From positions 32,001 to 96,000 of IMG/VR virus record IMGVR_UViG_3300013126_000012: 64,000 nucleotides of DNA, one strand, 5' to 3'. Each line of letters begins with the position of its first letter. Positions within the stretch are counted from its first letter, which is position 1. The DNA is from a virus. The notes beneath the pieces are model-generated. The model ran no database searches. It saw only the letters and a program-made list of their open reading frames with translations, and was not told the DNA's origin. This document shows positions 6,054 to 31,536 of the stretch, piece after piece. A program made the position numbers and the translations under genes.

Positions 6054-7388
6054 ATGATACGTCTAAAAAAATTACTAGAACAATTGGGCGGTAAAAATGC
6101 AGTGTTTAAACAATCACCTATTGATAAATCAATCGTAATAACTCCATTTGATGCTAAAAAGGTAGCTAAATTATTATATAATTCAAAGGGATATATTAAC
6201 GATGATGAATCGTTAGCTAAAGATTCAATTATTAAAAATATTAATAATATTGAACAATACAAACAAGTAAATAAAGAATTACAGTCACTAACATCTGGTA
6301 GAGGTATTGGTGCATATCTTCGATCGTTTTTAAATAACGTAGATAGATTTAAAATTGTACGATCGTTAGTTTATAAGCTTCCGAAAACTGATTGGAAATG
6401 GACTATTGCAAAGATTATGCCATTTAGTGATTTTAAATTGTTAGTTAGCAAAAATCCTTCATATTGGAACGTTATAGTTGGAAATTCAATGTCAAACCAG
6501 CCAGTGACTAACGCAGAATTACAATTAATTCAATTTTATGAACCTGAAAAAATTAAGGATTCTAATTACGGATTCTGGGATAGAGTTATTGACACATTTC
6601 TATCCGTATCCGGAACACCAATTAAAGATGCTAGAGATTTACTATCAGATTTTGATGCTATCATTAAAAGAAGAATTGATTACAATAAGAAACATAATTT
6701 ACCAATTGATACCTTAACACCAGAAGAAAAAACTTTTAGGGAGAAAATTTTAAAGGCCACCCCAAACTATGGGTATCCTAACATTTTCGGTTTGTCCAAA
6801 ATTATACAAGATATAAATCAAGGTAAAAATATCCAACCTCAAGAATTCGAAAGATACAAAAAGATTGGAACATATGATTATGGTAATATTGGTAAACAAA
6901 AATATAGTGACCAAAAACTAAAGACGCTGCTGGGTTCCAGAGAAGAACTTAAAAGAATGTGGTTGGGAATTGATGAACCTGATGGGGAAAGTAAAGGTTT
7001 TTGGGTTAAATCGGAATTCAAACCAAAAGACTCAACAAACCCAAACGCTGTTTATTATAAACCAAAAGATATTCCAAAATTAACGCCACAACAATTTGAT
7101 GAATTATACAATGCAATTATGGATACTAAAAAACCAGATGGTAAATTTCCTGGGGGAAATAGTTCTATATTATTTGATAACAAATTCAAATTTATTAACG
7201 CAAGTATTAAAGAGAAAATAAGGGGTGATTTAGGTCATTTTAAATTTGGTGCGGGAAAAGAAAATGGAAAAACATATATTTCTATATATGATGAATGGGA
7301 CTTAATGCCACCTTCCGCCAAAAAATTCGGTGTTAATGTTCAAAAATACGGTAAAACACCATTAATATATTATCGTATTTTTAAATAA
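6054..7388 (+). CDS. Hypothetical protein with MIRLKKLLE leader and annexin-like N-terminal segment; only long plus-strand gene
   Basis: 444-aa ORF; leader shared with other ORFs; AKLLYNSKGYINDDE resembles an annexin repeat. Confidence 0.7.
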   Translation: MIRLKKLLEQLGGKNAVFKQSPIDKSIVITPFDAKKVAKLLYNSKGYINDDESLAKDSIIKNINNIEQYKQVNKELQSLTSGRGIGAYLRSFLNNVDRFKIVRSLVYKLPKTDWKWTIAKIMPFSDFKLLVSKNPSYWNVIVGNSMSNQPVTNAELQLIQFYEPEKIKDSNYGFWDRVIDTFLSVSGTPIKDARDLLSDFDAIIKRRIDYNKKHNLPIDTLTPEEKTFREKILKATPNYGYPNIFGLSKIIQDINQGKNIQPQEFERYKKIGTYDYGNIGKQKYSDQKLKTLLGSREELKRMWLGIDEPDGESKGFWVKSEFKPKDSTNPNAVYYKPKDIPKLTPQQFDELYNAIMDTKKPDGKFPGGNSSILFDNKFKFINASIKEKIRGDLGHFKFGAGKENGKTYISIYDEWDLMPPSAKKFGVNVQKYGKTPLIYYRIFK

Positions 7389-7535
7389 ATGCAAATCTTG
7401 TATAAATGAACCTTTATGCCGGCATCTTACAATGCGTTTAACGATATCAAATTCATAGGTATTCAATCCCCATTCTTCTGCAAATTTATAAAGGCTATCT
7501 TTACCTTTGTAATGTGTCTGTGTATTTACGCTCAC
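7362..7535 (-). CDS. Small DUF3310-like protein, possibly C-terminally truncated (not in ORF track)
   Basis: GTG start overlaps upstream TGA; MSVNTQTHYKGKDSLYKFAEEWGLNTYEFDIVKRIVRCRHKGSFIQDLHLFKNTIIY; HY...K..R...K...QDL pattern. Confidence 0.55.
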   Translation of the reverse strand: MSVNTQTHYKGKDSLYKFAEEWGLNTYEFDIVKRIVRCRHKGSFIQDLHLFKNTIIY

Positions 7536-7981
7536 TTGATTCCTTTTAACATACGTTTTTTCTCAGCATCGCTATATCCATACATTGTTATGATGCGTTC
7601 TAACGTAACCTTATCCATTAAATCTGCATAATCTACAGCTTCGGATTTGCTAATCTGATAATGTTCTGCAAGTTGTGTGATTAAATCTTTATCAAATTTA
7701 TCTTCAGTTTTGCCTTTAATGTATTTTGCAAAGCTTTTATTGGTAGGCAGAAGTTCATAGTACAATCGATATGTTTCTTGTGGTCTAAGTAATCCAATTG
7801 TATATGTTTGCAATTCATTGACTAATTCCGTTAATTCCATTCGCATCGATAACCAACGATTAACGATAAATGGAGAAAATTTCTTTTGATCGGTTTCAGA
7901 CCATTTTTTCCATTCACGTTTTTTATCCGTTACGCCACCAATCAAATCAAAAATCGTTGCACCTTTTTTTTCTTCTGCCAT
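7532..7981 (-). CDS. Clamp loader small subunit (T4 gp62-like)
   Basis: FSPFIVNRWLSM, YYELLP...FAKYIK, LAEHYQISKSEA; near clamp loader large subunit. Confidence 0.75.
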   Translation of the reverse strand: MAEEKKGATIFDLIGGVTDKKREWKKWSETDQKKFSPFIVNRWLSMRMELTELVNELQTYTIGLLRPQETYRLYYELLPTNKSFAKYIKGKTEDKFDKDLITQLAEHYQISKSEAVDYADLMDKVTLERIITMYGYSDAEKKRMLKGIK

Positions 7982-7984
7982 TCG

Positions 7985-8200
7985 TTATAATTTATATTTT
8001 TTACGATATTGTTGTTCTAAATATTCACCCATCCCTGCTTCTAAAATAACAGCAGTATCTGGTATTCCTATGATTCGTTTTGCATTTAAGATATCATCCA
8101 TTGATTTGTTTCGAAACGTTTTGATTTTAGTTTTTGCGTTGCTACGATTTGATGTTTTAAATACAATTGTAACTAAATCTTTATGATATGGTGCAGACAT
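7985..8200 (-). CDS. Hypothetical protein
   Basis: Tightly packed ORF in operon. Confidence 0.6.
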   Translation of the reverse strand: MSAPYHKDLVTIVFKTSNRSNAKTKIKTFRNKSMDDILNAKRIIGIPDTAVILEAGMGEYLEQQYRKKYKL

Positions 8201-8418
8201 TACTTTTTAACTTTTATGGGTTGAAATTCTTCTGGAATAGAACCACAGTCATCGCATCTAAATACTGGAATTGGTACCATGGTATCTTTATCGGCACCCG
8301 TTAAAAATTTAGATACTTTGTTGATAGCCATTACTTGTCGAAAATACATTCCGTTGCATTCGGCGCACGTAATTGGTTGCATATCGTTTGGACCAATATT
8401 AACATTTAATTTACTCAT
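8200..8418 (-). CDS. Small zinc-ribbon protein
   Basis: CAEC...CDDC pairs. Confidence 0.7.
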   Translation of the reverse strand: MSKLNVNIGPNDMQPITCAECNGMYFRQVMAINKVSKFLTGADKDTMVPIPVFRCDDCGSIPEEFQPIKVKK

Positions 8419-9341
8419 AATTCTCCTAATAAATTTACAAACATTGCCATTATGTTGATTTCTTTATCTACTACACTTGCATCTTTAAACTGCGATTCTG
8501 CTATAATCAAAATGCACGGAGCAATATGTCCATGTGCAAAATCATCTAAATTGTCATAAAGAAAAGTATACAATGGCGTAAAATCTTTTACTTTGCTATC
8601 AGCAATAACCTGACGTATTTTATTGAATGCAGCTTTTTTGTCTTTAGCATTTTTCAAAACTTCCAATATTTCCGTCATGTAATTTGCTTGAATTGCACTT
8701 GCTTTATCTAATTGCAATTTACCGTTAACAACAGATGCTTGTGCTGCATTGATTGCTCGGCGAATATCTGGATATGATGCATTGATGATTGCTGCTACAT
8801 CTTTAATATCATATGTAACACCCTTTTCATCTAATACCACAACCAATCGCTTTGCTACATCTGATTTGCTTGGAGGCGTAATAGCAAATGTTTGACAACG
8901 AGATTGAATTGGATCAATAATTTTTTCAACATAGTTACATGTTAAGATGAAACGCGTTGTTTTGCTATAAGTCTCCATTAAATTGCGAAGAGCAGCTTGA
9001 GCATTTGCGGTCATAAAATCGAATTCGTCGAGAATAATAACTTTCCAACGTTTAAAGCCGACCGACGATGCAAATCTAGATATTTTATCTCTAACGACAT
9101 CTACGGAATTTTCATCGGATGCATTAATATACATGGTTTGGCTATCAACTGCATTTGCTAAAATTTTAGCTAATGTAGTTTTACCCGTACCTGCCGATCC
9201 GTAAAATAATAAATGGGGCAATTCACCATTTTGTATCCAAATATTTGCTTTTCCTATTAACGCTTCGTTCCCGATATAACCATCTAATGTATTTGGTCTG
9301 AACGCCTCTGTCCACAAATCATGTTCTTTTTCTTGTTGCAT
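8415..9341 (-). CDS. Clamp loader AAA+ subunit (RFC/T4 gp44-like)
   Basis: W.E.FRP, GSAGTGKTT Walker A, INASDE, IILDEFD, SRC motif. Confidence 0.93.
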   Translation of the reverse strand: MQQEKEHDLWTEAFRPNTLDGYIGNEALIGKANIWIQNGELPHLLFYGSAGTGKTTLAKILANAVDSQTMYINASDENSVDVVRDKISRFASSVGFKRWKVIILDEFDFMTANAQAALRNLMETYSKTTRFILTCNYVEKIIDPIQSRCQTFAITPPSKSDVAKRLVVVLDEKGVTYDIKDVAAIINASYPDIRRAINAAQASVVNGKLQLDKASAIQANYMTEILEVLKNAKDKKAAFNKIRQVIADSKVKDFTPLYTFLYDNLDDFAHGHIAPCILIIAESQFKDASVVDKEINIMAMFVNLLGEL

Positions 9342-10146
9342 AACATTTATTCAATTGTAATTTATTTTGACCTTCGAAGATTGTTTCATTTATATAATCT
9401 CGTATGATATCTTCACTTATAATAAGGAATTCTATATTATTCTCCAAGCAATATTGCTTAGCAGCTGATGTTTTATAATGATTATCTTTTATGTTAGATA
9501 ACGGTTTAACTTCAATTAAAATTCGATTAATTGGATCATAAAAATCTACAATATATGTTTTAGATTCATTATTGTTATCAATATATGGAATACGGATTGT
9601 TTCATATTGCCAATGTTGATTAGAAAACCATAAACATGCTTCCCAACTACTCCGAAATTTTTTAATTTCATTATCTATTTCTATAACAGCATCCCAATGC
9701 GTGAAACTATTTGTAATTTTTGGAGTAAATTCGTTATTTAAAATTTTTTGTTTTAAAATTTTTGAATTCTTAATGCCTACTCGTTTTTTAGTCTCAATTC
9801 CAACAGCTGTTTGGTAATATGTTTTAAGTTTTTCAGAATTTTGTCGTCCTACTGATTTTGCTGTATCTTTACCATAATCTGTTTGAAAAAATTTCAACTT
9901 AGATTTGGAAATTTTCTTTCCAATATCAGTCGTACGTTTACCTCTTTGCCAAACTCTATTTTCAGTGCAAGTTAAACAATAACTACGGTACCGTTGAGTA
10001 TTGATATATTGTATATTACAATGTGAACATATATGATCATAACCTTGTGTTTCACATTCAATACATAATGTTTTATTCCACACTCCAAAAAACGAAGTAT
10101 TGCACCTATTACAAATTTTTTTAATTGGTTTATATCCACCGCTCAT
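9319..10146 (-). mobile_element. Free-standing homing-type endonuclease (Zn fingers plus TnsA-like PD-(D/E)xK domain)
   Basis: Multiple CxxC; FRSSWE...YE...IPY...YIVDF...LIEVKP; more AT-rich; overlaps clamp-loader start. Confidence 0.72.
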
Positions 10147-10199
10147 AACTAATCTTTATTATAAATATGAGTATTCAGAATAAAAAAATCTGTTTCTAG

Positions 10200-10625
10200 T
10201 TATTTACCTGTTGATCCAAATCCTCCTAGCCCACGTTTTGTATCTGATAGTGAATCGGTTATTTGCCATTCTATTCGTTCTACACGAGACATAACCAGTT
10301 GTGCAATTCGATCGCCCTTTGCAAATTCGGCAACTGTGCTACTATGATTTATTAAAATAACACCAATTTCTCCTCGATAATCTGAATCAATAGTTCCTGG
10401 CGTATTCAACACGGTTACTCCATGTTTTAAAGCTAAACCACTGCGAGGTCTTACTTGAATTTCAAATCCTGCAGGAATTTCTACAAATAGACCCGTTTTT
10501 GCTAATAGTCGTTCTCCTGGATTCAATACAACTGATTCTGTACATCTTACATCCATACCGGCACTTTGTGGCGTTTCATATGCCGGTAACATATTTTCTG
10601 ATTCGTTTATTACTTGTACTTGCAT
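10200..10625 (-). CDS. dut: Trimeric dUTPase
   Basis: AGMDV, RPRSGLA, GTIDSDYRGE, RIAQL, RGLGGFGSTG; start taken at MQVQV (10625). Confidence 0.95.
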   Translation of the reverse strand: MQVQVINESENMLPAYETPQSAGMDVRCTESVVLNPGERLLAKTGLFVEIPAGFEIQVRPRSGLALKHGVTVLNTPGTIDSDYRGEIGVILINHSSTVAEFAKGDRIAQLVMSRVERIEWQITDSLSDTKRGLGGFGSTGK

Positions 10626-10636
10626 ATTAATTTTAT

Positions 10637-11347
10637 TTAGTTCTGGAGCATCACTAACCAATAAGTTGATTCAAAATCTGCACCCGTAAATTCAATTCGA
10701 GCTAAACCATCTGGTGATACTTTTAATTCTCCGCTATCTCCACGATTTGCTACTAATACTTCTTTTAACTTATCTGCAGAAAAACAAACTGGATCCATTG
10801 TGGCCATTGTTGTTGGACCTACTTCAAATGAAATGTTATCTGCATTGACCGTTGTGTAATTAATAATAAATTTAACTTGTCCGTTAATAACTTGCACTGC
10901 AAAGTTTTTTGCATCTGGTAATGCATTTTTTGCTTTGATAAATTTGCTAACAAATTCTTCATTAACTGGAATAGTAATTTCATAATTAGGTTCTGCATTG
11001 ATTGAAGGTACTGCGGGAATAACTGTTGTGTCAGCTAACATAAAAGTTGCCTGCGTGCTACCTTCTGAAATTTTCATTGCATAATTTTTACCTGCTGCAT
11101 CTTTAACATCGATTGCAATATTCTCACCTAATGCACCTAGCATTTTAATCAAAGCGCCAGTATGATTAATTCCTAACATACCTGTCATGAATGGTGTTGT
11201 ATTCCATTTAATTTTACCTACGATGGTTTGATCTGTATCAATCAATTCGCATCCGATTGAATCTGTTTGTTCTTTTAAAATAACCGCTTCGCAATTGCCT
11301 GCTAAATAATAACGATTAATGAACGATTGTAACTTGCTTTTTTCCAT
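10637..11347 (-). CDS. DNA sliding clamp (T4 gp45/PCNA-like)
   Basis: 236 aa, two-domain beta-rich pattern ending STYWLV; near clamp loader genes. Confidence 0.65.
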   Translation of the reverse strand: MEKSKLQSFINRYYLAGNCEAVILKEQTDSIGCELIDTDQTIVGKIKWNTTPFMTGMLGINHTGALIKMLGALGENIAIDVKDAAGKNYAMKISEGSTQATFMLADTTVIPAVPSINAEPNYEITIPVNEEFVSKFIKAKNALPDAKNFAVQVINGQVKFIINYTTVNADNISFEVGPTTMATMDPVCFSADKLKEVLVANRGDSGELKVSPDGLARIEFTGADFESTYWLVMLQN

Positions 11348-11360
11348 TATTTATTCCAAT

Positions 11361-12620
11361 TTAAAATGTAAAGAATTTATTAAAATTTTCTGCATCAGTG
11401 GTTGATATACTGCTACCACCGAATTTTTTATATGTTTTGATGTATTTTTCATATACTTGCGGAGCCGAGTCTGGATCGGCAAACATTTCGTGCAAAGATA
11501 ATATTACATCATATAAGTCTCTAGGTATTACTGTTTCTAACAATTCAACGTGACTATCAACCATTTGATTGATTTCATTTGCAGCTTGTACATACAAATG
11601 CGTATTGTGAACTACCATTCGGGGCATTGCTTCTTGCGAATAGCGATCCAACCCGTCTGCTGTCTTACCGCCTAAATATTCATAAGTAAAATCTGCACAA
11701 GCCGGGCATCCCATAGAACACGGTACATGTTGAGTTAAGTCAATTGCAACCTCTCCGGTTTTGCCTTGCTTGATATGTGACTTTCTTCGATATTCGGCAT
11801 TCTTTGGAAAATACAATTCAGAGAATGATTGTGACTTGTAATTTGTTGAATGAAGATATGTTCCAAATACTGGATATTGTCCTGGAGATGAAGAATCTGT
11901 TGTGATATAAATTCTATTACCAGTTAATTCATTCATTAATTTTTGCAATGTAGCCAAAATAAAGAAATCTGAAATTTTACTAATACCAAGTAAGTGAACA
12001 TATTCTAATCGTTTATTTTCAAATTCTCGCTCTTTGAGCATCAAAGAAACTGCAAACATGAAATCAACTAATTTCTGCGGACCTCCAATTGCCCAACCTT
12101 GAAAATCAAAATGCTTAAATTTATGATACCACCAAGTATACTCATCTGCATTTGAACCTTGCAACATGTTTAAGAATTTTGTCTTGCCGCTTTGATTTTT
12201 TTCAAACCAAGCAAAATTATCAAAACTAATGTCAGCACAAAGTGCAAATTGATTTTTGTATTTTGTCTTAGGTGGGATATCTAAATTAGCTGCAACATCG
12301 CTGTTTGCTTCTAACCAATGAAAAATCTTTTCTCGCAATTCATTGCTATATGGTAATGCACCCGTTGCAATCTGATACCCGCCCGAGTCACCAAATACTA
12401 GCACATCTTTTTCTAATCCCATTTGATCGCGGAAATCCATTTTCTTGTAATGATGTCCTGCTGTAACCAGAAAGTATGGATGTCTCCAATCTGCAGGATA
12501 TCTAGAATCAAAGAATTTTACCGGATCGCCGCTTGTAAATTTCATATCTTTCTTAAATGCAGATACCATGCTGCCTGCAGATAAAGATGGAAAGTATATG
12601 AATCTTTTATTTTCGCTCAT
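11361..12620 (-). CDS. dpdA: DpdA/TGT-fold guanine transglycosylase
   Basis: FGDSGGYQ, LDIPP, WAIGG, VHLLG, DSSS, Zn site PCSMGCPAC...HN; same region as folE/queD/queE. Confidence 0.8.
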   Translation of the reverse strand: MSENKRFIYFPSLSAGSMVSAFKKDMKFTSGDPVKFFDSRYPADWRHPYFLVTAGHHYKKMDFRDQMGLEKDVLVFGDSGGYQIATGALPYSNELREKIFHWLEANSDVAANLDIPPKTKYKNQFALCADISFDNFAWFEKNQSGKTKFLNMLQGSNADEYTWWYHKFKHFDFQGWAIGGPQKLVDFMFAVSLMLKEREFENKRLEYVHLLGISKISDFFILATLQKLMNELTGNRIYITTDSSSPGQYPVFGTYLHSTNYKSQSFSELYFPKNAEYRRKSHIKQGKTGEVAIDLTQHVPCSMGCPACADFTYEYLGGKTADGLDRYSQEAMPRMVVHNTHLYVQAANEINQMVDSHVELLETVIPRDLYDVILSLHEMFADPDSAPQVYEKYIKTYKKFGGSSISTTDAENFNKFFTF

Positions 12621-13635: not shown

Positions 13636-13640
13636 AACTT

Positions 13641-13669
13641 ATTATATAAAATTATTATATCATATCCAA
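13641..13669 (-). promoter_or_regulatory. Class I promoter TTGGAT-N17-TATAAT for GT-dpdA
   Basis: Exact spacing; ATG 5 nt after the -10. Confidence 0.7.
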
Positions 13670-18828: not shown

Positions 18829-18986
18829 TTTTCTTCCAATTGATCAATTAAAAATCGTAATCTGTTAATTTCTGTAATAACATCATCACCCAACTCTATT
18901 TTAGACATCATGGATAAATCTATTACTTGCGTTTCTAAAACTTTGATTAATTCTCGTTGCGCGTTTATTAAATCTTCTTTATTCAT
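18825..18986 (-). CDS. Small coiled-coil protein, 53 aa (not in ORF track)
   Basis: MNKEDLINAQRELIKVLETQVIDLSMMSKIELGDDVITEINRLRFLIDQLEEK; TAATG overlap with queE. Confidence 0.65.
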   Translation of the reverse strand: MNKEDLINAQRELIKVLETQVIDLSMMSKIELGDDVITEINRLRFLIDQLEEK

Positions 18987-19798
18987 TATACTCCTCGTTT
19001 AGTGTCAAATGCAATGATATGATCTCTGCCTGTCATATTATATCCTTTCTCAGCACACATATCAAATACCACAGGATACATTTTTATTAATTCTTCTCTG
19101 TTATCACCCGCGGGCATTATAAATGTTTTAGATTTTGGAATATTATGTAATACTCTAAATTCTTCAATTTCTTCTAGATTATACGCTGTGCCATCCCATA
19201 CTGGTTTATAATGATAATCTGCGTGAAATGCAATCATCTGTTTGATTGCTTCGTGATTGAGACGAAATTTATTGTGTTGCGCCACCATCTTTTCATCCGT
19301 AATCGTCCCTTGCGGCGTAGCAACACCCACACGGGGAACGCTATTATCAAACTTAGGACTAAGACTAATAAGCCCAATAGGATAATCGGTAGCAATAAAA
19401 TGCGAGCCTTCTGTTTCAATCGTGATAAGAATGTTTCTTTCATGTGCAAAATGAGTTAATTCATTTACCAAAGCCGGATGCATTGTCGGCGAACCACCAG
19501 TTAACATCATTTCTTTGATGTGTGGATTTTCATCGTATATCTTTATGATATCATTGAATGTAAATGTGCCTTTTTCTGGATGGATACTTGTATACCATGA
19601 ATCGCACCAACCGCCTTCACCAAACCAACATCTATGCGTACAGCCCGTAGTTCGTACTGCAATTGTTGGTCGTCCAAATCGGCTACCCTCTGACTGTACG
19701 CATCGATACAATTCTACTATTGGTAGTGTTTTGTTGTAATCTGTTATTCTTTTAGAAGGGGAGGTCGTCATCGTGGTACTCATTACTATTGGTAACAT
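18986..19798 (-). CDS. queE: 7-carboxy-7-deazaguanine synthase (radical SAM)
   Basis: VQSEG, RTTGCTHRC...WCDS, LTGGSP, IETEG, SLSPK; true start may be near 19771. Confidence 0.92.
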   Translation of the reverse strand: MLPIVMSTTMTTSPSKRITDYNKTLPIVELYRCVQSEGSRFGRPTIAVRTTGCTHRCWFGEGGWCDSWYTSIHPEKGTFTFNDIIKIYDENPHIKEMMLTGGSPTMHPALVNELTHFAHERNILITIETEGSHFIATDYPIGLISLSPKFDNSVPRVGVATPQGTITDEKMVAQHNKFRLNHEAIKQMIAFHADYHYKPVWDGTAYNLEEIEEFRVLHNIPKSKTFIMPAGDNREELIKMYPVVFDMCAEKGYNMTGRDHIIAFDTKRGV

Positions 19799-21330: not shown

Positions 21331-21864
21331 TTACATGTTTGGGTCACCCGGAGTATCTATACCAGATGCATCGTATTTTGGTGTATTGCTATTTAACTTT
21401 ACGTACACACTACCTCTATTTCCTGATGTTATAGTTGCATTAGGGTAAGCATTTTTAATATACCTTATATAAAGATTTAATCTAGATATATTTGTAGTTT
21501 CGCCTTCTTTTTTTGCTGGGGTAAATGTTATGGTATCAATTTCAGGATGGTCTTGCAAATCTTTTTTAATAATTGCAGTTACAGTTGCCATAACTCTAAA
21601 TAGTTCACCTTTATTTGCTACTATATTGTCTCTTTCTATATCCGGGTCATCTTCATCGGGGATATAAAATCTTACTCCTAATATGTTAGTTGTATCTTCA
21701 TCATAGGCATCGAAATCAGCATATTGTAATTCTACAGTATATGGATAATTTTCAGTATCAAACCCATAAATTCTCATATTATCATAATCGCCATAAAAAT
21801 CAAATCGATATGGTTGTGAACTTGCATCACCTATTTCTTTAAGTATTGTTTTTAATCGTATCAT
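21331..21864 (-). CDS. Hypothetical protein with MIRLKTILKE leader
   Basis: Start reassigned to 21864, directly after ATATTTATT motif. Confidence 0.7.
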   Translation of the reverse strand: MIRLKTILKEIGDASSQPYRFDFYGDYDNMRIYGFDTENYPYTVELQYADFDAYDEDTTNILGVRFYIPDEDDPDIERDNIVANKGELFRVMATVTAIIKKDLQDHPEIDTITFTPAKKEGETTNISRLNLYIRYIKNAYPNATITSGNRGSVYVKLNSNTPKYDASGIDTPGDPNM

Positions 21865-21865
21865 A

Positions 21866-22084
21866 TTAATAAATATCTTTGAATGCAGTATTGCCTTTTT
21901 CATGTGCCGGTTCATACGCACAATGTCTACAACCCGATCCACAACAAGCACCTCGTTTACGATGATATGCTTCAGTCATTACCATTCGACCATTTTCCCA
22001 ATAAAAATCCTCCGGAGAGAGCTTGTTTCCAAACTCTCTCACAAAGGCTTGTTGTATCCAATCTTTTGATGCTGGCTGTATCAT
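21866..22084 (-). CDS. Small Cys-rich protein (DUF5522-like)
   Basis: DFYWENGRMVMTEAYHRKRGACCGSGCRHCAY. Confidence 0.75.
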   Translation of the reverse strand: MIQPASKDWIQQAFVREFGNKLSPEDFYWENGRMVMTEAYHRKRGACCGSGCRHCAYEPAHEKGNTAFKDIY

Positions 22085-23940: not shown

Positions 23941-23986
23941 TGTTGTAATCTCCTTAGATGTTTTATTAACTTAAATTTTTTAGATG

Positions 23987-24010
23987 AAAAAAGGAAGGAG
24001 TACTCCTTCC
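23987..24010 (-). terminator. Perfect 18-bp palindrome plus U6 in the nrdJ leader
   Basis: GGAAGGAGTACTCCTTCC followed by TTTTTT on the minus strand. Confidence 0.6.
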
Positions 24011-24035
24011 CAATTTCTTTCATATAAATATCATT

Positions 24036-25391
24036 TTATCCCAAAGTTCCTCCAAGATCTTTAAACTTTTGTGCTAAATTTTTCTTAACTAAATTCTCGC
24101 CCGTTTTCATGATCTGCGTAGTTTGTTTGCCTTGAGTTGTTTGTGGTTCAAAGAATTGAAATTGACCATTATTTGTGTTGATTTTACTTGGTAGTGTAAT
24201 ACCATCTGGTCCAAATCGATTCTTAATAACATGTCCTCTACCAGTTCCTGATAATTTATCTTCTACTTTTCTAGATAGTGACATTAAAAAATCAGCAACC
24301 ATTACTTTTCCATACGATGATGCAATTTTGTCTGCTTCAATTACATCTTCTTCCAATGCACTACGACCTGCCTGCGATGCTGTCCATACTGGAATTTTAT
24401 ATTCTCCTGCCATACCTCGCAACTCTTCATATAAATCTTCCAATGCTTCGTGCTTATCTTTTTTAGTATTTACTTTGAGCAAGTCACCGTAATCTACAAT
24501 AATCAAATCAGGTGTTTTGCCTTGCATCATTGTTTTTTCAATATGTGCTTTAAGTGCCATTACTCCTACCGACTTTGTAGGGTAGTATTTAACAATCAAA
24601 TCTCCCGTTAGAGACTGCATCTTTTCTTCCACAGTTTCTTGATGATGCTTAAGTGTTTGTGCGTTTATACCAGTTAAAACCGAGTCATATCGCTGTCCTA
24701 CATAGTTCTCATTGAGCTCTAATGTATAATGTATAACTGTTTTTCCTGCTCTAACTGCATTAGCACCGATGTTGATAAGCATCCAAGATTTACCAATACC
24801 TGCAGGAGCCATCACTACTCCTAACTCACCAGGAGCCAATCCGCCATCCATTAAATCGTCAATAACATCCCAACCCGTTGTGATTGTATGTCGAGCAGCT
24901 TCATTGTATCGTGCAGCTACATTATTAATGTAATCTAATCCAATGTCAGTATCAGCACCAGCTTTCATGGCACTATCCATTTTGGTTTTAATTGCATCAT
25001 AGTTACCCATTTTGAGTAACGATACCGAATCCATAATGGCTCGTTTGATTTCTTGATTCTTGCAAAATTTAAGAATTTCATCTTTTACAAAAGAAAGGTC
25101 ATCAGATTCCATGTAACGGAATACTTCTTTCAATTGTTCTAATACTGCAGTTTTTAAGATGTCATTTTCAATTTCGGTTATTTTGACTTTAAGTACATCT
25201 TTAGATGGCGGAGCTTTGTATTGTCTAAAATGTTCCAATACAATTTCTAACAACCAACTGTTTGCATCTGATTCAAAATAATCAGGTTGAATGATATCTG
25301 CAATTTGTTGTAAAAATATTCGGTCTGTAAATAATGCGGCTATGACTTTGACTTGAAAGCCAAAACCATACTCCGATAAACGATCAGTCAT
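24036..25391 (-). CDS. Replicative DnaB-like helicase (T4 gp41-like)
   Basis: APAGIGKS, YTLEL, IIVDYGDLL, WTASQ, KNRFG. Confidence 0.93.
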   Translation of the reverse strand: MTDRLSEYGFGFQVKVIAALFTDRIFLQQIADIIQPDYFESDANSWLLEIVLEHFRQYKAPPSKDVLKVKITEIENDILKTAVLEQLKEVFRYMESDDLSFVKDEILKFCKNQEIKRAIMDSVSLLKMGNYDAIKTKMDSAMKAGADTDIGLDYINNVAARYNEAARHTITTGWDVIDDLMDGGLAPGELGVVMAPAGIGKSWMLINIGANAVRAGKTVIHYTLELNENYVGQRYDSVLTGINAQTLKHHQETVEEKMQSLTGDLIVKYYPTKSVGVMALKAHIEKTMMQGKTPDLIIVDYGDLLKVNTKKDKHEALEDLYEELRGMAGEYKIPVWTASQAGRSALEEDVIEADKIASSYGKVMVADFLMSLSRKVEDKLSGTGRGHVIKNRFGPDGITLPSKINTNNGQFQFFEPQTTQGKQTTQIMKTGENLVKKNLAQKFKDLGGTLG

Positions 25392-25426
25392 ATAACCATT
25401 ATATAAAAAACGTTGATAAAATCAAA

Positions 25427-26494
25427 TTATTTGTGTGTTTGTTTTGCAAATGCATTTAAAGACAACCAAGTATTGTTCAACCAATCTGGTAAATTCTTCA
25501 TGATAGCCCACATCTTATCTTCATAAAATAATCTTTGAAACTCAGAACGATTTAATTCAGGTATAGGTTGTTCCATAATACCACGAATCTTTGTTGCAGT
25601 TTGTGCTGGTATATCAAGCAATTTGATATTCATTAATTGATAATTTTGTTCGATGATGCGACTATTATCAAGAATTTTTTGATATGACTTAGATTCTTTA
25701 AGCAATGCCGTGCTTTTGTCAAACAATTGTTGTGTCGAATATGGTGCTGCAGCAGCTAATTCCGGAATCAATTTCAATATAGTTTTTGGACCTATTCCAT
25801 TAACACCTGGAATGTTGTCTGATGCATCGCCCGTAAATGATCTATAAATAACCATGTTAGCAGGATGCACTCCAAATTCTTCTTGCACCGTGTCTACATT
25901 ATACATTTTCTTTTTAATAGGAGACCATACTTGAATATGATCATCTACCAATTGGTAAAAGTCTCTATCTGTAGATACAATTGTAATTTTTTTGCATTCC
26001 GTTTCATACATTTGTGCAATATACGCAATAGTATCATCTGCCTCAATTCCATCCATTGAAATAAATGTAACAGGCAAATTGTCTAGATAAGAAATCAAAC
26101 GACTAAATTGATGTCGCATTGATTCTTGTTCTTGCTCCAAAGTAGATTCATGATGATCATGACGACGCAATTTGGTTTTATTTGCCCTATTTGCTTTGTA
26201 ATCACCATAAATACGTTTTCTTCGTGCAGAACCCCCGCGACCATCAAAAACGATAATGCATCGAGTTGGTTTAAAATCTCGTATGGTTTTGCCTACCGAA
26301 TATAAAAATCCGGTAATACCACCAATATGATCGCCATCTTCATTGTATGCGGGAGTTGCGCCGAAGCTTCTAATAAAAGTGTTCAGTCCGTCAAACACCA
26401 TGAGATGATCATTGACGCTTGACGGAGCAGAACTCTTTTCTTTTTGTAACTCTTTGAATAGCTGTTGATACTTATTCTTCATCATAAACTTCAT
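25427..26494 (-). CDS. 5'-3' exonuclease/flap endonuclease (T4 RNase H-like)
   Basis: DGLNTF, VFDG, YKANR, EADD, STDRD, GDASDNIPGVNGIGPKT. Confidence 0.93.
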   Translation of the reverse strand: MKFMMKNKYQQLFKELQKEKSSAPSSVNDHLMVFDGLNTFIRSFGATPAYNEDGDHIGGITGFLYSVGKTIRDFKPTRCIIVFDGRGGSARRKRIYGDYKANRANKTKLRRHDHHESTLEQEQESMRHQFSRLISYLDNLPVTFISMDGIEADDTIAYIAQMYETECKKITIVSTDRDFYQLVDDHIQVWSPIKKKMYNVDTVQEEFGVHPANMVIYRSFTGDASDNIPGVNGIGPKTILKLIPELAAAAPYSTQQLFDKSTALLKESKSYQKILDNSRIIEQNYQLMNIKLLDIPAQTATKIRGIMEQPIPELNRSEFQRLFYEDKMWAIMKNLPDWLNNTWLSLNAFAKQTHK

Positions 26495-27632
26495 CTACGA
26501 CAATTACGTCATCAATACCACCATCAACACCGGCTTGATATTTGAAGATATAAGCATCGCATATTCTTTGATATAACCTTTCTTTTGCTTCTGAGTTATT
26601 AATAACCTTTTCCACAAAATCTTTGCTTTGAAATTTGAATTCGCCAAACGATTCTCCGGTTTCAATATCTACGTCATCCATAGTATACCAAGCACCTGAT
26701 TGTTTAACAATATCAAAATTCTTCATGATGTTTAACCAACCACCATAATTGTCAATACCAGAATCATAATAGATTTCATAATCAACTTTGCGATGTGGAG
26801 GACCCATCCTGTTTTTTACTACTTGTACATTTGTTTTGCTACCCACAACTTGTTCTACACCACTTACTTTGGCTTTGATCATTCCGGTATTTTTCAAACG
26901 CAATCTAACCGAAGCATGAAATGGAATTGCTTTACCGCCTGCAGTTGTCCATTGGTCACCAAATGATACGCCCATTTTGGTACGTAATTGATTGGTAAAT
27001 ATGAGACAAATACGTTCGCGTGCAATCCAATTGGTAACTTTTCGCATTGCCTTTGATAATATAATGGATTTGCTTGTTGCATAACCATCCTTATCATACT
27101 CAGCTGACATTTCAATTTTTGTAGATGCACCCATGATTGAATCCACTACAATTGTAACTAAACGATTTTTGTCTGATTTACGTACTCCTTCAACAATAGT
27201 TTCAATTGTTTCAAAAATTTCTTCAATTGTCTCTAAAGGAACATAAAGCATTGTTTTCAAATCAACGCCAATTGCTGTTAAAAATTCAGAACTCACTGCG
27301 GCTTCTGTATCAATATATACTGCTAATCCGCCTTTCTTTTGTGTTTCTGCTAATGTGTGTGCAGCTAACAACGATTTACCAGATGCTTCCAATCCGGTAA
27401 TTTCAGTGATGCGCCCAACGGGAAAACCTCCATGGGCGCGATTTGAAATTGCTAAATCGAGCATCGAGCAACCAGATGATACCCACTCTGTTACATTGCT
27501 TGGAGCATCTTCATCGCCATCTAAAAAGAATGCAGTTTTGAGTGCTTGACCTTTAAATTGCTTGTTGATACTTTCTGCCAATGTTGATGCTAGAGCATCT
27601 TCTATTTCCAGTTTACTTTTACTCTTTGCCAT
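26472..27632 (-). CDS. recA: RecA/UvsX recombinase
   Basis: GRITEITGLEASGKS, YIDTE, IVVDS, FTNQLR, GGKAIPFHASVRL, KNR. Confidence 0.95.
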   Translation of the reverse strand: MAKSKSKLEIEDALASTLAESINKQFKGQALKTAFFLDGDEDAPSNVTEWVSSGCSMLDLAISNRAHGGFPVGRITEITGLEASGKSLLAAHTLAETQKKGGLAVYIDTEAAVSSEFLTAIGVDLKTMLYVPLETIEEIFETIETIVEGVRKSDKNRLVTIVVDSIMGASTKIEMSAEYDKDGYATSKSIILSKAMRKVTNWIARERICLIFTNQLRTKMGVSFGDQWTTAGGKAIPFHASVRLRLKNTGMIKAKVSGVEQVVGSKTNVQVVKNRMGPPHRKVDYEIYYDSGIDNYGGWLNIMKNFDIVKQSGAWYTMDDVDIETGESFGEFKFQSKDFVEKVINNSEAKERLYQRICDAYIFKYQAGVDGGIDDVIVVDEVYDEE

Positions 27633-27647
27633 TTTATAACCTCACTG

Positions 27648-28418
27648 TTAGTTGTTGAATAAATCATCAAATGCAGAAGCAACATCATCAACTTTTTTAG
27701 TTGCAGCCGGCTTAGCAGCTTTTGCTGGAGCAGGAGCTTCTTCTTCATCATCCGAATCAACATCTGAATCTGCATTTTCTGGATTCATCCATTCTGCTAA
27801 TGCTTTTTCTAGTTCTTCATAAGATGGTTCTGGAAATAAATCAGTAATCGTAGGTTGATTCATGATTTTTTGTGCAATCTCTTTGTCTTCGGTTGCAGGT
27901 TGTGTATTAGGCTTAACACGAATTGCAGTCTTTGGATAAGCTCCGCCTTCTGCTGGCGTAAATTCTACATCAATATCACGACCATTCATCAAATCCGTAA
28001 TGTCGCCATAATCTGGATCAGAGATAATTGAAAGCAATTCTGTGTAGATTGTTTTACCAAATCCCCAAAACTTAACACCTTCAGATTCTTTACCGCGAAC
28101 AATTACAGGAACATAAGTACGCATTTTAGGTTCAATCTTACGACCCATTAGCCAATCTTCTTTATCTCCGGTCTTTTTAAGCTTATCTGCAAATTCTACG
28201 ATTGGATCTGCGTTGCCAAATGTGATCGGCGATAACATGGATTTCTTTCCGATGTCATAATGAAAATACAATTCTAAAAACGGATTTTCTTTGCGGTGGA
28301 CGTATGGTACAATGCGCACCCTCGTTTTTCCTGCTTCGGGTTTCCAAAGATTCTGTTTTTTGTCATCGGCTTTGTTTAATTGATTAAGTTTTGCTTTGAT
28401 AGCGTCTAAGTTTAACAT
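27648..28418 (-). CDS. Single-stranded DNA-binding protein (T4 gp32-like)
   Basis: WKPEAG...RIVP, YFHY, FWGFGK, DITD...GRD, acidic tail ending FDDLFNN. Confidence 0.8.
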   Translation of the reverse strand: MLNLDAIKAKLNQLNKADDKKQNLWKPEAGKTRVRIVPYVHRKENPFLELYFHYDIGKKSMLSPITFGNADPIVEFADKLKKTGDKEDWLMGRKIEPKMRTYVPVIVRGKESEGVKFWGFGKTIYTELLSIISDPDYGDITDLMNGRDIDVEFTPAEGGAYPKTAIRVKPNTQPATEDKEIAQKIMNQPTITDLFPEPSYEELEKALAEWMNPENADSDVDSDDEEEAPAPAKAAKPAATKKVDDVASAFDDLFNN

Positions 28419-28493
28419 AAATTTCCTTTTTGTTAAGTTGTTAATAAAAAATAATTAATAATAATATAATTGATTTACCGGTTAAATCCAAGT

Positions 28494-29186
28494 TTATAAT
28501 TTGTTTTTTTTTAAATTCATCGTTTGTTTAAATGATTCGAGACGCTTTCGTTTATGTTCTGCAGATTGTGGCCCAGTTTTACGACCTAGTAACGTATTGC
28601 TAATTTTTTGTTTTATTTCGTCAGTTTTAGGTTTACCATAATTATGATTTTTTTCACCTTTTTTTGCATCGCTTAGTTTTTTCTTTATCTCATTAGATAA
28701 CGGTTTACCCATTTGAGATTCGCTCTTTTGTAGTCGTCGATCTTTTGTCCAAGCTGCACTTAACTTTTTTTTAGTTTCGTTAGTATGTTGCTTACCTTTA
28801 TTCCAAGCTTCTCGGCCTTTACTTGATTGACCAATTTTAAGTTTAGTTTCATCAGAATGAGTGAATGATTTTCTTGCGTCACTAATTAATAGTTTAATAT
28901 GCTCGTATTCTCGACTACTAACCGTATAATTGCGTTGTTGCGTATTACTTTGTGTTTTATTTGCCATTAACCAATATGCATATAATAATTTATGATCATT
29001 AGGATAAATTTCACAAAGAAGTTTATGTGCGATAAAATGTTCTCGAGCTGTTAAATCAACTAAATTTGATGCATTATTGCTCCCGCCTATACAACGTGGT
29101 ATGACATGATGTCTTTCTTTGTAACCTAGCAATGTTCTTGTTCGAGCTCGATTAATTAATTGTGTATAAATTCGTTCATAATTCAT
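28494..29186 (-). mobile_element. HNH homing endonuclease with NUMOD3 repeats
   Basis: ERHHVIPRCIGGSN...NLV.LTAREHFIAH; repeated HSDETKLKI/HTNETKKKLS. Confidence 0.88.
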
Positions 29187-29341
29187 TTAATTAGTATCCT
29201 TAGTTAATTAATTATAATTTAATTAGTTATGTCGTTAATTCAAAGTTAATTGTTAAGTTTTTTATTTTTAAATTATGATATACCCACCGTAAGCGCCTAA
29301 ACCTCTATCTGCACGTTCTAATTCATTACTAATTTTATCTG

Positions 29342-29617
29342 CTATTTCATTTGATAAAGTACTTTAAATTCTACAATTCCATCATTTGGATCATATGAAC
29401 GATTAATTGAAGTTTTATCAAAACCATATTTCTTAAATACATTAACGGCAATTCTATCCATGAAGTTATCAGTGCCAGAAAATAAAATCATTAGACTATC
29501 AGCTGGCCTTTCGGTTTCATCTGGATATCCGTTGTTATTTTGATCAGAATCTTCACTCAAATTCTTAGTACCGAACCTTCTCATGTTTTCTGCTAAGATG
29601 TTTTTTAATTTAATCAT
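29342..29617 (-). CDS. Hypothetical protein with MIKLKNILAE leader (3' end possibly frameshifted)
   Basis: Leader motif; SD-like TAGGA; shifted frame stays open to about 29268. Confidence 0.6.
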   Translation of the reverse strand: MIKLKNILAENMRRFGTKNLSEDSDQNNNGYPDETERPADSLMILFSGTDNFMDRIAVNVFKKYGFDKTSINRSYDPNDGIVEFKVLYQMK

Positions 29618-29646
29618 GACTGTTCCTATGTATAAATTTAAATTTT

Positions 29647-30039
29647 TTAGAATAAATAATCAGAAAGTACTTGATCATTTATTCCGTGTTTTTTTGCAAC
29701 AAGTTCATCTTGTATTTCTACATTTTGAATATCGCCATCTTCATCGAAGGTAACAGTAAAATCAATAGTATCGGATCCTACTTTTAATTCGCAATCAAAT
29801 TTAATATCAGACACTAAACGTGTTTGATCATATGCACCTGTTGGATCATTTTCACTTTCAATTTCTTGTTTGATGTCGTTTATCAGATCTTGGAAATCGC
29901 TTTTATCAGCTACGCCGCCACCTTGATATGTTACATACGAATATCCGCCAATATTTTTATCATATTCTGCACGATTAATAACAATTTGAAAATCTTTATT
30001 TTCTTGATCTTCTCGCAATAAATTTTTCAATTTAATCAT
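29647..30039 (-). CDS. Acidic hypothetical protein with MIKLKNLLRE leader
   Basis: Leader motif; ATATTTATA and TAGGA upstream. Confidence 0.7.
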   Translation of the reverse strand: MIKLKNLLREDQENKDFQIVINRAEYDKNIGGYSYVTYQGGGVADKSDFQDLINDIKQEIESENDPTGAYDQTRLVSDIKFDCELKVGSDTIDFTVTFDEDGDIQNVEIQDELVAKKHGINDQVLSDYLF

Positions 30040-30063
30040 TTGTTGTCCTATATAATATAAATA

Positions 30064-30450
30064 TTAGTTCCATGTAATTTTCTTGAAAAAGATCAAGTCA
30101 ATTACGCGATATCCCGCATCATCGGTTAGGATGAAAGAATTTTGATATTTGGTCCAATCCAATCGATATGATTTGTCTAATACGCCATTATTAACAACCC
30201 GAATAACTTCATTAAGTGCATTGACAGTATATAAAGTATTGGTTTCTTTTTTGCGGTGAATGCTAATTGTATTCTGTCCCCGTTGCGTTCCTGCATCTGC
30301 ATTGTATGTGCAATATAAATTGTCTGCGGCTTCTGCATTGGCAAATACAAAGATTCTGCGTTCTGGTATGGTATAGCTTTGTTGTATGTAATCTGATATT
30401 ATGTTTAAATCTGACTTATGTGCAAATGTGCAAAGTAATTGTGTTTTCAT
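30064..30450 (-). CDS. Hypothetical protein
   Basis: QLLCTF...TISIHRKKETNTLYTVNALN; no function recognised. Confidence 0.7.
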   Translation of the reverse strand: MKTQLLCTFAHKSDLNIISDYIQQSYTIPERRIFVFANAEAADNLYCTYNADAGTQRGQNTISIHRKKETNTLYTVNALNEVIRVVNNGVLDKSYRLDWTKYQNSFILTDDAGYRVIDLIFFKKITWN

Positions 30451-30456
30451 TCTTCA

Positions 30457-31536
30457 TCAATCCTGCGGTTTTTTTGTTACTTTAGTGTTTAATTGGCTAC
30501 CTAATACAAATAATTTATTTTGGTGAAAATTTGCGATTGCTGGCGATAATCGATCCTTGCGACATTTTAAAATAGGTGCCAATTCATCGGCAGCTTCTAA
30601 AAACAACGTTTCATTTGACTTGATTATCATGCCCCACCAATTTACTGATGTAATTTTTTCAACAACCATTTTATCTACAATGTTGCAAAATGCATGAATC
30701 ATAGTATCTAAATTATCATCTAATTGATAAAATGATTGTAGTTTTTTGCTTATATTTTGTAACATTGGAATATCTGAATCGTTGCCTAATTTAATAATAC
30801 GACGAATATCTGTTTCGGTTTTTTCTGTATCTAAAAAATCCAAAACCGAATTAATTTGTTCTCGACCTTTCGATTTGCTAATATCTTGACCAGTTAATAG
30901 TTTTGCCATTTCTAAAAAACTATTCAACAATTGTACGCCTTCAGAAGATAATGATCCAAAATCAAAAGTGATCTTTTCATAGTTTTTCAAAGAAACTGTT
31001 TGATCGCCAACTTCGATATCTGCTTCGATGCCAGATTCGCCAGCAACTGCCCCTTTAACTAAGCCGCCATATGAAATTGCAAACCATAATTCTGATTCAT
31101 CGCCATTTGGAATTTTAATCGTATTTTTGATTATATTATACAATGTACTATAAACTCCGCGAATAGGTACAACTCCGGTTGCTAATCGCATTTTTACTGG
31201 ACCAGTAATTAAATCAATTAATTGATCTGATTCGCTACTACTCATAACTGCATCATACATTGCAGATAATCCGATTATTTGCTGGCCTTCGACACTAAAC
31301 TTTGTTTTAATATATTGTTCAAATGATGTAGCATCATTAAATAGCGAATTAATATCAACTAATTCAGTTGCTTCCGTAATACCTTGAGCTCGATTAACAA
31401 CGCGTTGCGCTTCAAGTGGTGAAAGGTCTGTCATTTCTAAAATGATATCATACAACATCTTGTAATCTCGAGATTGCGTTGGATATCCTTTTGGTAATCT
31501 ATAACTCCATTCTGTTAATATTGAATCTATAGTCAT
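30457..31536 (-). CDS. Hypothetical protein, possible PD-(D/E)xK fold, with SILTE leader
   Basis: MTIDSILTEWSYRLPKGYP; GDESE...ADIEV...SLKNY. Confidence 0.55.
   Translation of the reverse strand: MTIDSILTEWSYRLPKGYPTQSRDYKMLYDIILEMTDLSPLEAQRVVNRAQGITEATELVDINSLFNDATSFEQYIKTKFSVEGQQIIGLSAMYDAVMSSSESDQLIDLITGPVKMRLATGVVPIRGVYSTLYNIIKNTIKIPNGDESELWFAISYGGLVKGAVAGESGIEADIEVGDQTVSLKNYEKITFDFGSLSSEGVQLLNSFLEMAKLLTGQDISKSKGREQINSVLDFLDTEKTETDIRRIIKLGNDSDIPMLQNISKKLQSFYQLDDNLDTMIHAFCNIVDKMVVEKITSVNWWGMIIKSNETLFLEAADELAPILKCRKDRLSPAIANFHQNKLFVLGSQLNTKVTKKPQD

Follow-up and report, generated by a model that had tools for sequence, protein, structure and literature searches.

A probable T4-style capsid-targeting, protease-cleaved leader on exchangeable cargo proteins of an uncultured T4-like phage

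The window analysed here, i.e. the whole stretch of 64,000 nt at positions 32,001 to 96,000 of IMGVR_UViG_3300013126_000012, belongs to the 159.6-kb genome of an uncultured T4-like phage, which encodes a T4-type capsid protein, is not a jumbo phage and whose nearest cultured relative infects Flavobacterium. As the initial annotation had recognized, four unrelated ORFs of the window share their N-terminus, which follows the consensus M-I-[KR]-L-K-x-[LI]-L-(x)-E and is located at 6054 on the plus strand and at 21864, 29617 and 30039 on the minus strand (ORFs are named by their start). The features of these cassettes and of the ORF at 31536 are:

6042..6049, plus strand: one-mismatch variant ATATATAT of the promoter-like motif, followed by TAAT and then ATG
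6054..6080, plus strand: leader MIRLKKLLE (N-terminus MIRLKKLLEQ), a 9-residue version without the x before Glu, still ending L-L-E
6054..7388, plus strand: cargo ORF of 444 aa with leader, helical N-domain, linker and 265-aa C-domain
21331..21864, minus strand: cargo ORF of 177 aa, body opening IGDASSQPY straight after Glu10, weak similarity to DUF6934
21835..21864, minus strand: leader MIRLKTILKE (N-terminus MIRLKTILKEI, pattern match)
21869..21876, minus strand: ATATTTAT, with a 4-nt spacer TAAT to the ATG
28494..29186, minus strand: homing (HNH) endonuclease in the same variable slot as 29617 and 30039 (phrog_655, E 5.9e-51)
29342..29617, minus strand: cargo ORF of 91 aa with a DQNNNGYPD motif common to slot ORFs of relatives
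29552..29587, minus strand: second leader module NMRRFGTKNLSE, which closes with a further L-x-E
29588..29617, minus strand: leader MIKLKNILAE (N-terminus MIKLKNILAEN, pattern match)
29632..29639, minus strand: one-mismatch version AAATTTAT, 14 nt ahead of the ATG
29647..30039, minus strand: cargo ORF of 130 aa, very acidic (net charge -16)
30010..30039, minus strand: leader MIKLKNLLRE (N-terminus MIKLKNLLRED, pattern match)
30057..30064, minus strand: ATATTTAT, 17 nt ahead of the ATG
30457..31536, minus strand: putatively late ORF of 359 aa with the conserved N-terminal domain MTIDSILTEWSYRLPKGYP..., outside the leader family
31560-31567, minus strand: ATATTTAT upstream of 31536

A search of the five window ORFs against Pfam and PHROG gave no significant family, only the weak DUF6934 similarity of 21864. 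For the 6054 protein, whose ORF lies among the few plus-strand genes, AF2 predicts a helix at residues 2-10 and a low-confidence linker at 15-21. Its helical N-domain resembles an annexin repeat over 65 residues (Z 9.2), a weak match which we do not trust as an identification. The C-domain (pLDDT 86, pTM 0.83) found no fold match (Foldseek E>=0.4, VIA-align Z<=4.3), and an Atlas search with the 6054 protein returned unnamed clusters only. The start of 21864 is an internal ATG within a longer ORF, at the very point where its homologs begin, and the second leader module of 29617 recurs in relatives as an optional add-on on several bodies. The assignment of 31536 as a looser version of the leader had to be abandoned: MTIDSILTEW opens a domain of about 65 residues, which in the listed homologs is conserved through and beyond the Glu and which is present also on 418-aa proteins.

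A promoter-like motif had been claimed upstream of each of these ORFs; the exact ATATTTAT precedes 21864, 30039 and 31536, and one-mismatch versions precede 6054 and 29617. Cassettes homologous to 6054 in relatives carry the exact ATATTTATTAAT-ATG. No other 8-mer is as common as ATATTTAT in the 40 nt upstream of genes (32 genes), and among 56 same-composition permutations, whose median is 3, it ranks first. Its raw count in the window is only mildly in excess (28 versus 18.7 +/- 4.6 in shuffles), and its occurrences are non-random in that they favour the coding strand (23 of 28), and in their place. It precedes sheath, tube, portal and baseplate genes as well as 8 of 16 leader ORFs, most of the remaining leader ORFs lying directly downstream of one that has it. 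Most of the genes that follow it are structural, some are not, and it is from this association with structural genes that the late timing of the cassettes is presumed. Neither intrinsic terminators nor sigma-70 promoters were found above chance in the flanks of the cassettes.

About 16 leader ORFs are present in the whole genome, in addition to two whose leader is related, and BLASTP detects no similarity among their bodies (all E>0.1). A paralogous family with a common fold was ruled out by this absence of similarity and by the occurrence of the same body behind other leaders (see below). Within the 216 called proteins of the genome [KR]L[KR]x[LI]LxE stands only directly after the start Met and never internally, and the back-translated pattern matches the window three times versus 0.00 expected from 100 shuffles, the 6054 copy being left out of these matches since it lacks one residue. 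A chance origin of the shared leader is excluded. L8 and E10 are present in every one of 59 distinct leader DNAs, L4 is kept in 57 and positions 6 and 9 are free. The synonymous codons at positions 7, 8 and 10 occur at near-genome frequencies, which indicates selection on the peptide. Codons 2-5, however, are near-invariant ATA-CGA-TTA-AAA where the promoter-like motif abuts the ATG (ATA and CGA each have a genome usage of 29%), so that part of the conservation is unexplained by the peptide. Hydrophobic residues occur in the leader in runs of two at most, between Lys, Arg and Glu, and it does not have the hydrophobic core (about 7 residues or longer, following a basic N-region) that a Sec, Tat or lipoprotein signal peptide would require; this candidate was rejected. 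The net charge of the cargo spans -16 to +24. The only payloads with a recognisable function are two peptidoglycan hydrolases outside the window (lysozyme+LysM and M23+lysozyme2), which would be compatible with delivery into the envelope of the next host.

The strongest evidence for reading the peptide as a detachable leader comes, at the sequence level, from three body-seeded searches, in which the same payload domains turned up in other phages, preceded by leaders of at least four different classes, all ending [LIMF]-x-E at a fixed distance ahead of the body. The C-domain of 6054 has 90 homologs in at least four classes (MIRLKxLLxE; ..RIKxLMGLxxE; MKIIITESQYxxLxxE; ..LRxLIRxVLLxE), and 66 of 77 carry [LIMVF]xE within 25 residues ahead of the body, mostly at exactly 6 or 11. 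The 30039 body occurs in other phages behind three classes, and the 21864 body behind MI[KR]L.. or ..YDEFLNE with the junction always E/IGD. The linkers that join leader and body are variable. The portability proposed in the initial annotation is thus seen in both directions, with one payload behind different classes elsewhere and different payloads behind one leader here. The variety of payloads it had envisaged is found in related contigs, where the bodies of 93 leader ORFs form 29 clusters.

Hypervariability among relatives is seen in the loci themselves. In 75 related contigs we compared the slot between an anchor gene and SSB, which contains 29617 and 30039; it is empty in 25 and otherwise holds one to three ORFs, at least 58 of 71 with a leader and in 15 body families. 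The 6054 slot is variable among relatives, too. The payloads are probably exchangeable, being located in variable slots among replication genes and often adjoining homing endonucleases.

A gp21 homolog had also been reported, and it is indeed encoded in the window, together with proteins carrying an [LI]xE in their N-terminal part:

53357..53500, minus strand: predicted propeptide of the major capsid protein, residues 1-48, ending AQLLE/NQ
53531..54568, minus strand: probable scaffold protein (by position), N-terminus MAKSDLLKE/A
55619..55996, minus strand: head-module protein of 125 aa, N-terminus MKTPNLKFILE/T
55996..56628, minus strand: prohead protease of the T4 gp21 / Peptidase_S77 family (S77 E 3.8e-33), the presumed processing enzyme

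The protease matches the T4 gp21 structure 5jbl (E 2.4e-23), is present in a single copy in the genome and occurs in all three leader-bearing contigs of at least 67% completeness. The N-terminus NLKFILET exists as described, but it belongs to the 125-aa gene just downstream of the protease and not to the protease itself. The mature N-terminus of T4 gp23 aligns to about residue 46 of the capsid protein, in which LLE/NQ lies at residue 48; for the probable scaffold no family match was obtained. An [LI]xE ending at residues 8-17 is found in 6 of 9 head-module proteins versus 21 of 193 others (p=2e-4).

At the level of sequence, all testable predictions of a T4-like capsid-targeting, protease-cleaved leader came out positive, and we consider such a leader on exchangeable cargo the probable explanation. 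By analogy with T4, a shared tag with the cutting motif of the phage's own protease most likely serves the capsid loading, trimming and delivery of unrelated late proteins. The N-terminus M-I-[KR]-L-K-x-[LI]-L-x-E would then be a detachable capsid-targeting propeptide. Each cassette of ATATTTAT motif, leader and payload would be expressed late in infection, the short amphipathic leader helix would dock the cargo onto the assembling prohead core, and the single gp21-type (S77) prohead protease would cut after the invariant Glu of L-x-E, a rule by which the capsid protein and head-core proteins would be trimmed as well. The freed payload would be kept in the head and exit with the DNA at the next infection. 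Related lineages attach their own leader class to the same payload.

It is unlikely that the leader is instead a tag for another partner, such as a RiPP-like modifying enzyme, the phage GroEL/GroES, a host protease for which it would be a degron, or an envelope route. A GroEL is encoded in the genome (536-aa MAKQIEFNS...), the cultured relative vB_FspM_immuto has GroEL/GroES, and the two cell-wall hydrolases among the payloads need envelope access. However, the only Radical_SAM match, at 27.7 bits and below cut-off, falls on a QueE homolog belonging to the deazaguanine pathway (window 18986-19798), so that neither a SPASM nor a further radical-SAM gene is at hand for a RiPP-like maturase, and the leader offers no hydrophobic core to Sec or Tat. 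The terminal [LI]xE, the cutting rule of S77 proteases, is all that the four or more unrelated classes of leader found on the same body have in common, and it recurs at the predicted maturation site of the capsid protein. Quite improbable is that the cargo, although directed to the prohead and cleaved there, consists of accessory scaffold or core parts, which would be degraded and expelled as the head matures. Similar N-terminal [LI]xE sites do exist in head-module proteins of unknown function, and T4 gp22, gp67 and gp68 are cut to pieces and exit the head (PMC9026906), yet hypervariability, optionality and scatter among replication genes are not expected of a scaffold, and the lysozyme and M23 peptidase payloads are meaningful only once delivered. 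That the conservation resides mainly in the nucleic acid, as a promoter-proximal or translation-initiation region of late mRNAs that are nearly leaderless or as a recombination cassette, and that the peptide is a by-product is highly improbable: 33 distinct cassettes do read ATATTTATTA[AG]T-ATG followed by the near-invariant codons, of which ATA and CGA each make up only 29% of their codon families, and the motif ends only 4 nt from the ATG in 6054 and 21864, but in 28 leaders away from the motif positions 2-4 vary (ATT, ATC, AAA, GAA; AAA, AAG, CGT; CTT, CTA) with the peptide pattern kept, positions 7, 8 and 10 drift synonymously, and the quite different leaders of other lineages converge only on [LI]xE.

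Comparison of the cassettes with GenBank phages at the DNA and protein level revealed no similarity, only a FolE fragment matching a Cellulophaga phage. The N-terminus of gp231 of vB_FspM_immuto is MIKLIDLLTES. In the open literature we found no description of the leader strings, no paper on Mel-JY01 and no proteomics, transcript data or N-terminal sequencing for this phage or vB_FspM_immuto.

Should the leader prove to be a capsid address, a motif of 10 residues would tell which phage proteins enter the cell ahead of gene expression, the class to which the anti-restriction protein IPI and the RNA-polymerase modifier Alt of T4 belong. About 18 genes of one genome are picked out by the motif, as are dozens of payload families in hundreds of contigs from uncultured freshwater and marine sources, and for nearly all of these families no function is known. 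More tentatively, a plug-and-play code for capsid cargo may be common to aquatic T4-like phages; in this code at least five interchangeable, lineage-typical leader classes ending [LI]xE would mark dozens to hundreds of unannotated families as virion-packaged, injected effectors. These would include peptidoglycan hydrolases, the very acidic 130-aa protein and the widespread 265-aa domain with its confident, unmatched fold, and the leaders would allow metagenomes to be mined by sequence for injected takeover and anti-defence proteins. On this reading the optional second module, NMRRFGTKNLxE, could act as an additional signal for sorting or staged release. The principle of the T4 capsid-targeting sequence (CTS) would be extended to a distant T4-like lineage, with cleavage after the Glu of L-x-E as the rule offered and the leader as a candidate tag to load foreign proteins into these phages.

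T4 places a 10-residue N-terminal tag on the unrelated proteins IPI, IPII, IPIII and Alt, as is the case here (PMC3012670, PMC9026906, PMC8442874). In the T4 CTS, MKTYQEFIAE, targeting depends on positions 4 and 7 and processing on 8 and 10, and gp21 cuts after L/I-X-E (PMC9026906, PMC8442874). The present leader keeps the same register, with hydrophobic residues at 4, 7 and 8 and Glu at 10, ends L/I-x-E and is accompanied by a gp21-family (S77) protease; as for T4 internal proteins, the payloads are diverse, poorly conserved among relatives and in variable loci. Beyond the hydrophobic register there is no similarity to MKTYQEFIAE, so that the link is one of analogy, ten residues being too few to infer homology. 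Whereas T4 has a handful of cargo genes, about 18 are found here, scattered in both orientations and each with its own promoter-like motif. In contrast to the T4 internal proteins the payloads are not basic throughout, peptidoglycan hydrolases are among them, a second leader module occurs as an option, and the same payload carries different leader classes by lineage, the present system being known from sequence alone.

In phiKZ the cutting rule demands a small residue (S/A/G) at P3, whereas P3 here is Leu or Ile, as in T4. Many head and inner-body (ejection) proteins of phiKZ and SPN3US have N-terminal propeptides removed after Glu, as proposed here, some with several cut sites, by a protease that is a diverged gp21 homolog (PMC9026906, PMC5694885). 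T4-type mobile promoter cassettes and morons are likewise self-contained units in plastic regions between conserved genes, adjoining homing endonucleases; in contrast to these, no flanking terminators were found here, and the conserved unit reaches into the coding region as a peptide tag.

Four otherwise unrelated ORFs of the window begin with the pattern M-I-[KR]-L-K-x-[LI]-L-(x)-E (the leader) and start at the following positions:

6054, plus strand, leader one residue short (LLE, not LLxE)
21864, minus strand, leader ORF
29617, minus strand, leader ORF
30039, minus strand, leader ORF

For these four, the shared N-terminus described in the initial annotation was confirmed, and the N-termini of all five ORFs named there (the fifth starting at 31536) read exactly as given. 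The leader was also more frequent than expected by chance, as the back-translated pattern retrieved 21864, 29617 and 30039 against 0.00 expected occurrences (100 shuffles of the window). About 16 ORFs across the whole genome carry a leader start. The core [KR]L[KR]x[LI]LxE has no internal occurrence in any of the 216 called proteins, and without their first 12 residues the leader proteins share no pairwise similarity (BLASTP, all E>0.1). On in silico grounds it is well supported and rather probable that the leader is a T4-style capsid-targeting, protease-cleaved sequence on exchangeable late cargo, whose main value would be as an entry point to the injected proteins of uncultured phages.

The window spans bases 32001-96000 of a virus record of 159,586 bp, which has direct terminal repeats and is rated complete; the G+C content is 34%, and the minus strand carries nearly all genes. 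The capsid protein is T4 gp23-like (PDB 5vf3/6uzc, E about 1e-26). The best GenBank match is Flavobacterium phage vB_FspM_immuto (immuto, 56% identity); Microcystis phage Mel-JY01 and an uncultured record come next. Because the closest match is a Flavobacterium phage, the host is probably a member of the Bacteroidota.

A search with residues 35-444 of the 6054 ORF yielded 90 homologs, in which a conserved ..YGFWDxVIDFFLPGTP.. stretch stands behind at least four leader classes.

Leader classes in front of 6054-type bodies
MIRLKxLLxE: 8 sequences
..RIKxLMGLxxE-Q: 30 sequences
MKIIITESQYxxLxxE-Q: 21 sequences
..LRxLIRxVLLxE: 3 sequences
others: 15 sequences

In 66 of the 77 usable sequences [LIMVF]xE lies at most 25 residues before the 6054-type body, with a spacing of mostly exactly 6 or 11. 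The 30039 body has 25 relatives (HMMER, all 1.84 billion representatives), some with extra inserted domains; on these bodies MIRLK-type leaders were found 12 times, MKKLENILAENMRRFGTKNLxE five times and MKKSELRQIIKEE once, the last class being present too in immuto gp094/gp095. Nearly all of the 61 close homologs of the 21864 body begin MI[KR]L...L.E|IGD.SSQPY, and a few ..YDEFLNE|IGDSSS. The sole trait common to all leader classes is a terminal hydrophobic-x-Glu at the body junction. Since two adjacent, different proteins in another lineage (L051/L052) both begin MNLQEQI.R.K..M.L..E, the leader class follows the phage and not the payload. Separately, immuto (NC_055915) has several further recurring N-terminal classes, all with a terminal [LI]xE, on gp003 and gp092 (MENFDLKKFLVEN), on gp230 and gp083 (MKKQILSEQFKRMQxLAGIITES) and on gp094 and gp095 (MKKSxL..II.(K)E). 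Its gp231 starts MIKLIDLLTES, and a glycine loop resembling that of kinases is present in gp093 (MISIYNILKEV...).

The T4 prohead protease gp21 cleaves after L/I-X-E (PMC9026906, PMC8442874), and the genome encodes a single protein of this family:

55996-56628, Peptidase_S77 (E 3.8e-33), aligning with T4 gp21 (5jbl, E 2.4e-23)

The leader could instead be a tag by which some other enzyme or a chaperone recognises these proteins. We consider this unlikely, as the genome holds no maturase-like gene and unrelated leaders converge on the protease motif, which argues for processing.

Leader-bearing genes occupy variable slots, for which the following features are relevant:

30064-30450, conserved 128-aa gene, anchor of the slot census
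28494-29186, minus strand, HNH homing endonuclease (phrog_655 match) in the same slot as 29617 and 30039
31584-32222, minus strand, putative homing endonuclease with a GIY-YIG-like N-terminus, judged by eye

Relatives of the anchor are encoded on 449 viral contigs, 80 of which were examined; 75 of these 80 also carry SSB downstream. The anchor-SSB slot, filled here by 29617 and 30039, is empty in 25 of the 75 contigs and otherwise holds one to three ORFs of 69-418 aa. At least 58 of the 71 slot ORFs (15 body clusters) bear a leader, and those without one are homing endonucleases or members of one other small family. A late-like motif lies at most 35 nt upstream of 43 of the 58 leader-bearing slot ORFs. 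In immuto the same slot contains a 171-aa ORF with a different leader, MENFDLKKFLVEN, and the 6054 slot between exonuclease and clamp loader is likewise variable in three relatives (L048, L049, L053). That the leader proteins are disposable scaffold accessories fits poorly with their being optional and hypervariable. Both homing endonuclease genes border the cargo slots. In relatives, HNH genes are found repeatedly in the same slot, and homing endonucleases may therefore drive cassette turnover.

None of the window payloads has a significant family match. In the model of the 6054 protein, residues 2-10 form a leader helix, followed by a linker of low confidence, a helical N-domain and a 265-aa C-domain that is modelled well (6591-7385, plus strand; AF2 pLDDT 86, pTM 0.83); this C-domain is widespread, with 90 metagenome homologs. 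The C-domain model has no PDB match (Foldseek, VIA-align), and the fold of this probable virion cargo protein may be new. The 30039 ORF has a strongly acidic payload (net -16). Outside the window, the leader is found on a DUF5872 protein and on two cell-wall hydrolases, one with Phage_lysozyme+LysM and the other with Peptidase_M23+PG_binding+Phage_lysozyme2, both separate from the phage's lysis cassette:

genome 14467-15246, minus strand, leader-bearing peptidoglycan hydrolase
genome 136869-138137, minus strand, leader-bearing peptidoglycan hydrolase

Hydrolases behind a putative capsid address would fit delivery at infection; an anti-defence role of the payloads is a guess.

The initial annotation had proposed the N-terminus of the 31536 protein (30457-31536, minus strand, 359 aa) as a looser version of the leader. 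A late-like motif is present, but MTIDSILTEWSYRLPKGYP is conserved through and past the Glu in all homologs listed. This N-terminus is part of a domain some 65 residues long, which shows strict conservation in the best 120 of 258 homologs and occurs also in fusion with a different, 418-aa body; membership was consequently rejected.

The late-promoter-like octamer ATATTTAT occurs genome-wide 53 times on the coding strand versus 13 times on the other. Intergenic copies account for 37 of the 53, with the ATG mostly 3-30 nt downstream, and the genes behind them include sheath, tube, portal, baseplate-hub and fibre. No other 8-mer is as common in the 40 nt preceding genes, where 32 genes have it, and it ranks first among 56 same-composition permutations (median 3). 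Its raw window count is only mildly above that of shuffles (28 versus 18.7 +/- 4.6), and therefore the evidence lies in position and strand, not in number. The exact motif is found at most 40 nt upstream of 8 of 16 leader ORFs versus about 24 of 200 other genes (p about 5e-4, an approximate value based on gene calls made for this analysis); most remaining leader ORFs lie directly 3' of a motif-bearing leader gene. We infer the late status of the motif from the company it keeps. At 21865-21876 and 6042-6053 a ATATTTAT-like motif ends 4 nt (TAAT) 5' of the ATG, as in a whole cassette class with 33 distinct examples in viral contigs, to which near-fixed codons 2-5 are limited. This short distance implies that the late mRNAs of motif-adjacent cassettes would be leaderless or nearly so.

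For the leader itself, 59 distinct DNAs from this genome and 39 viral contigs (promoter-plus-leader pattern search) were compared. All 59 share L8 and E10, and 57 have L4; Arg or Lys fills position 3 and Leu or Ile position 7, with no constraint at positions 6 and 9. Codons 7, 8 and 10 match genome usage, which suggests that selection acts on the peptide. With ATATTTATTA[AG]T immediately before the ATG (33 cassettes), codons 2-5 are almost invariant (ATA-CGA-TTA-AAA), with ATA and CGA each making up only 29% of their own codon family; in the 28 leaders not adjoining the motif, codons and residues at these positions vary and the peptide pattern is kept. The peptide is thus under selection, with an additional nucleotide constraint beside the promoter-like motif, and this codon analysis contradicts a purely nucleic-acid element.

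A second leader module was found at the following sites:

genome 126312 and 127511, plus strand, outside the window, two genes beginning MKNILSENMLRFGTKNLSE
29552-29587, minus strand, the same module in the 29617 ORF (residues 11-22)

The form NM[RL]RFGTKNLxE is preceded either by the first leader or by a short MKK..NIL.E start. Several different bodies follow it, and for the body of the 30039 type it is optional. Because two L-x-E motifs occur in a row, the arrangement may be a two-step propeptide.

Capsid-protein residue 60 aligns to residue 15 of mature T4 gp23, so that a cut is expected near residue 46; the predicted site is AQLLE|NQ, with the Glu at residue 48, and immuto reads MILE|NQ at the equivalent place. 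The predicted propeptide (53357-53500, minus strand) includes KWERTGLLEG, and the T4 gp23 propeptide has a similar KW..LLEG stretch. If this likeness is true, the propeptide itself would be conserved across very distant T4-like phages. Furthermore, [LI]xE ends at residues 8-17 in 6 of 9 head-module proteins versus 21 of 193 other non-leader proteins (p=2e-4), for example in the scaffold candidate (MAKSDLLKE|A) and a 125-aa protein (MKTPNLKFILE|T). The T4 capsid targeting sequence has 10 residues (MKTYQEFIAE), of which 4 and 7 are important in targeting and 8 and 10 in processing (PMC9026906, PMC8442874). Like this sequence, the leader described here is hydrophobic at positions 4, 7 and 8 and carries Glu at position 10.
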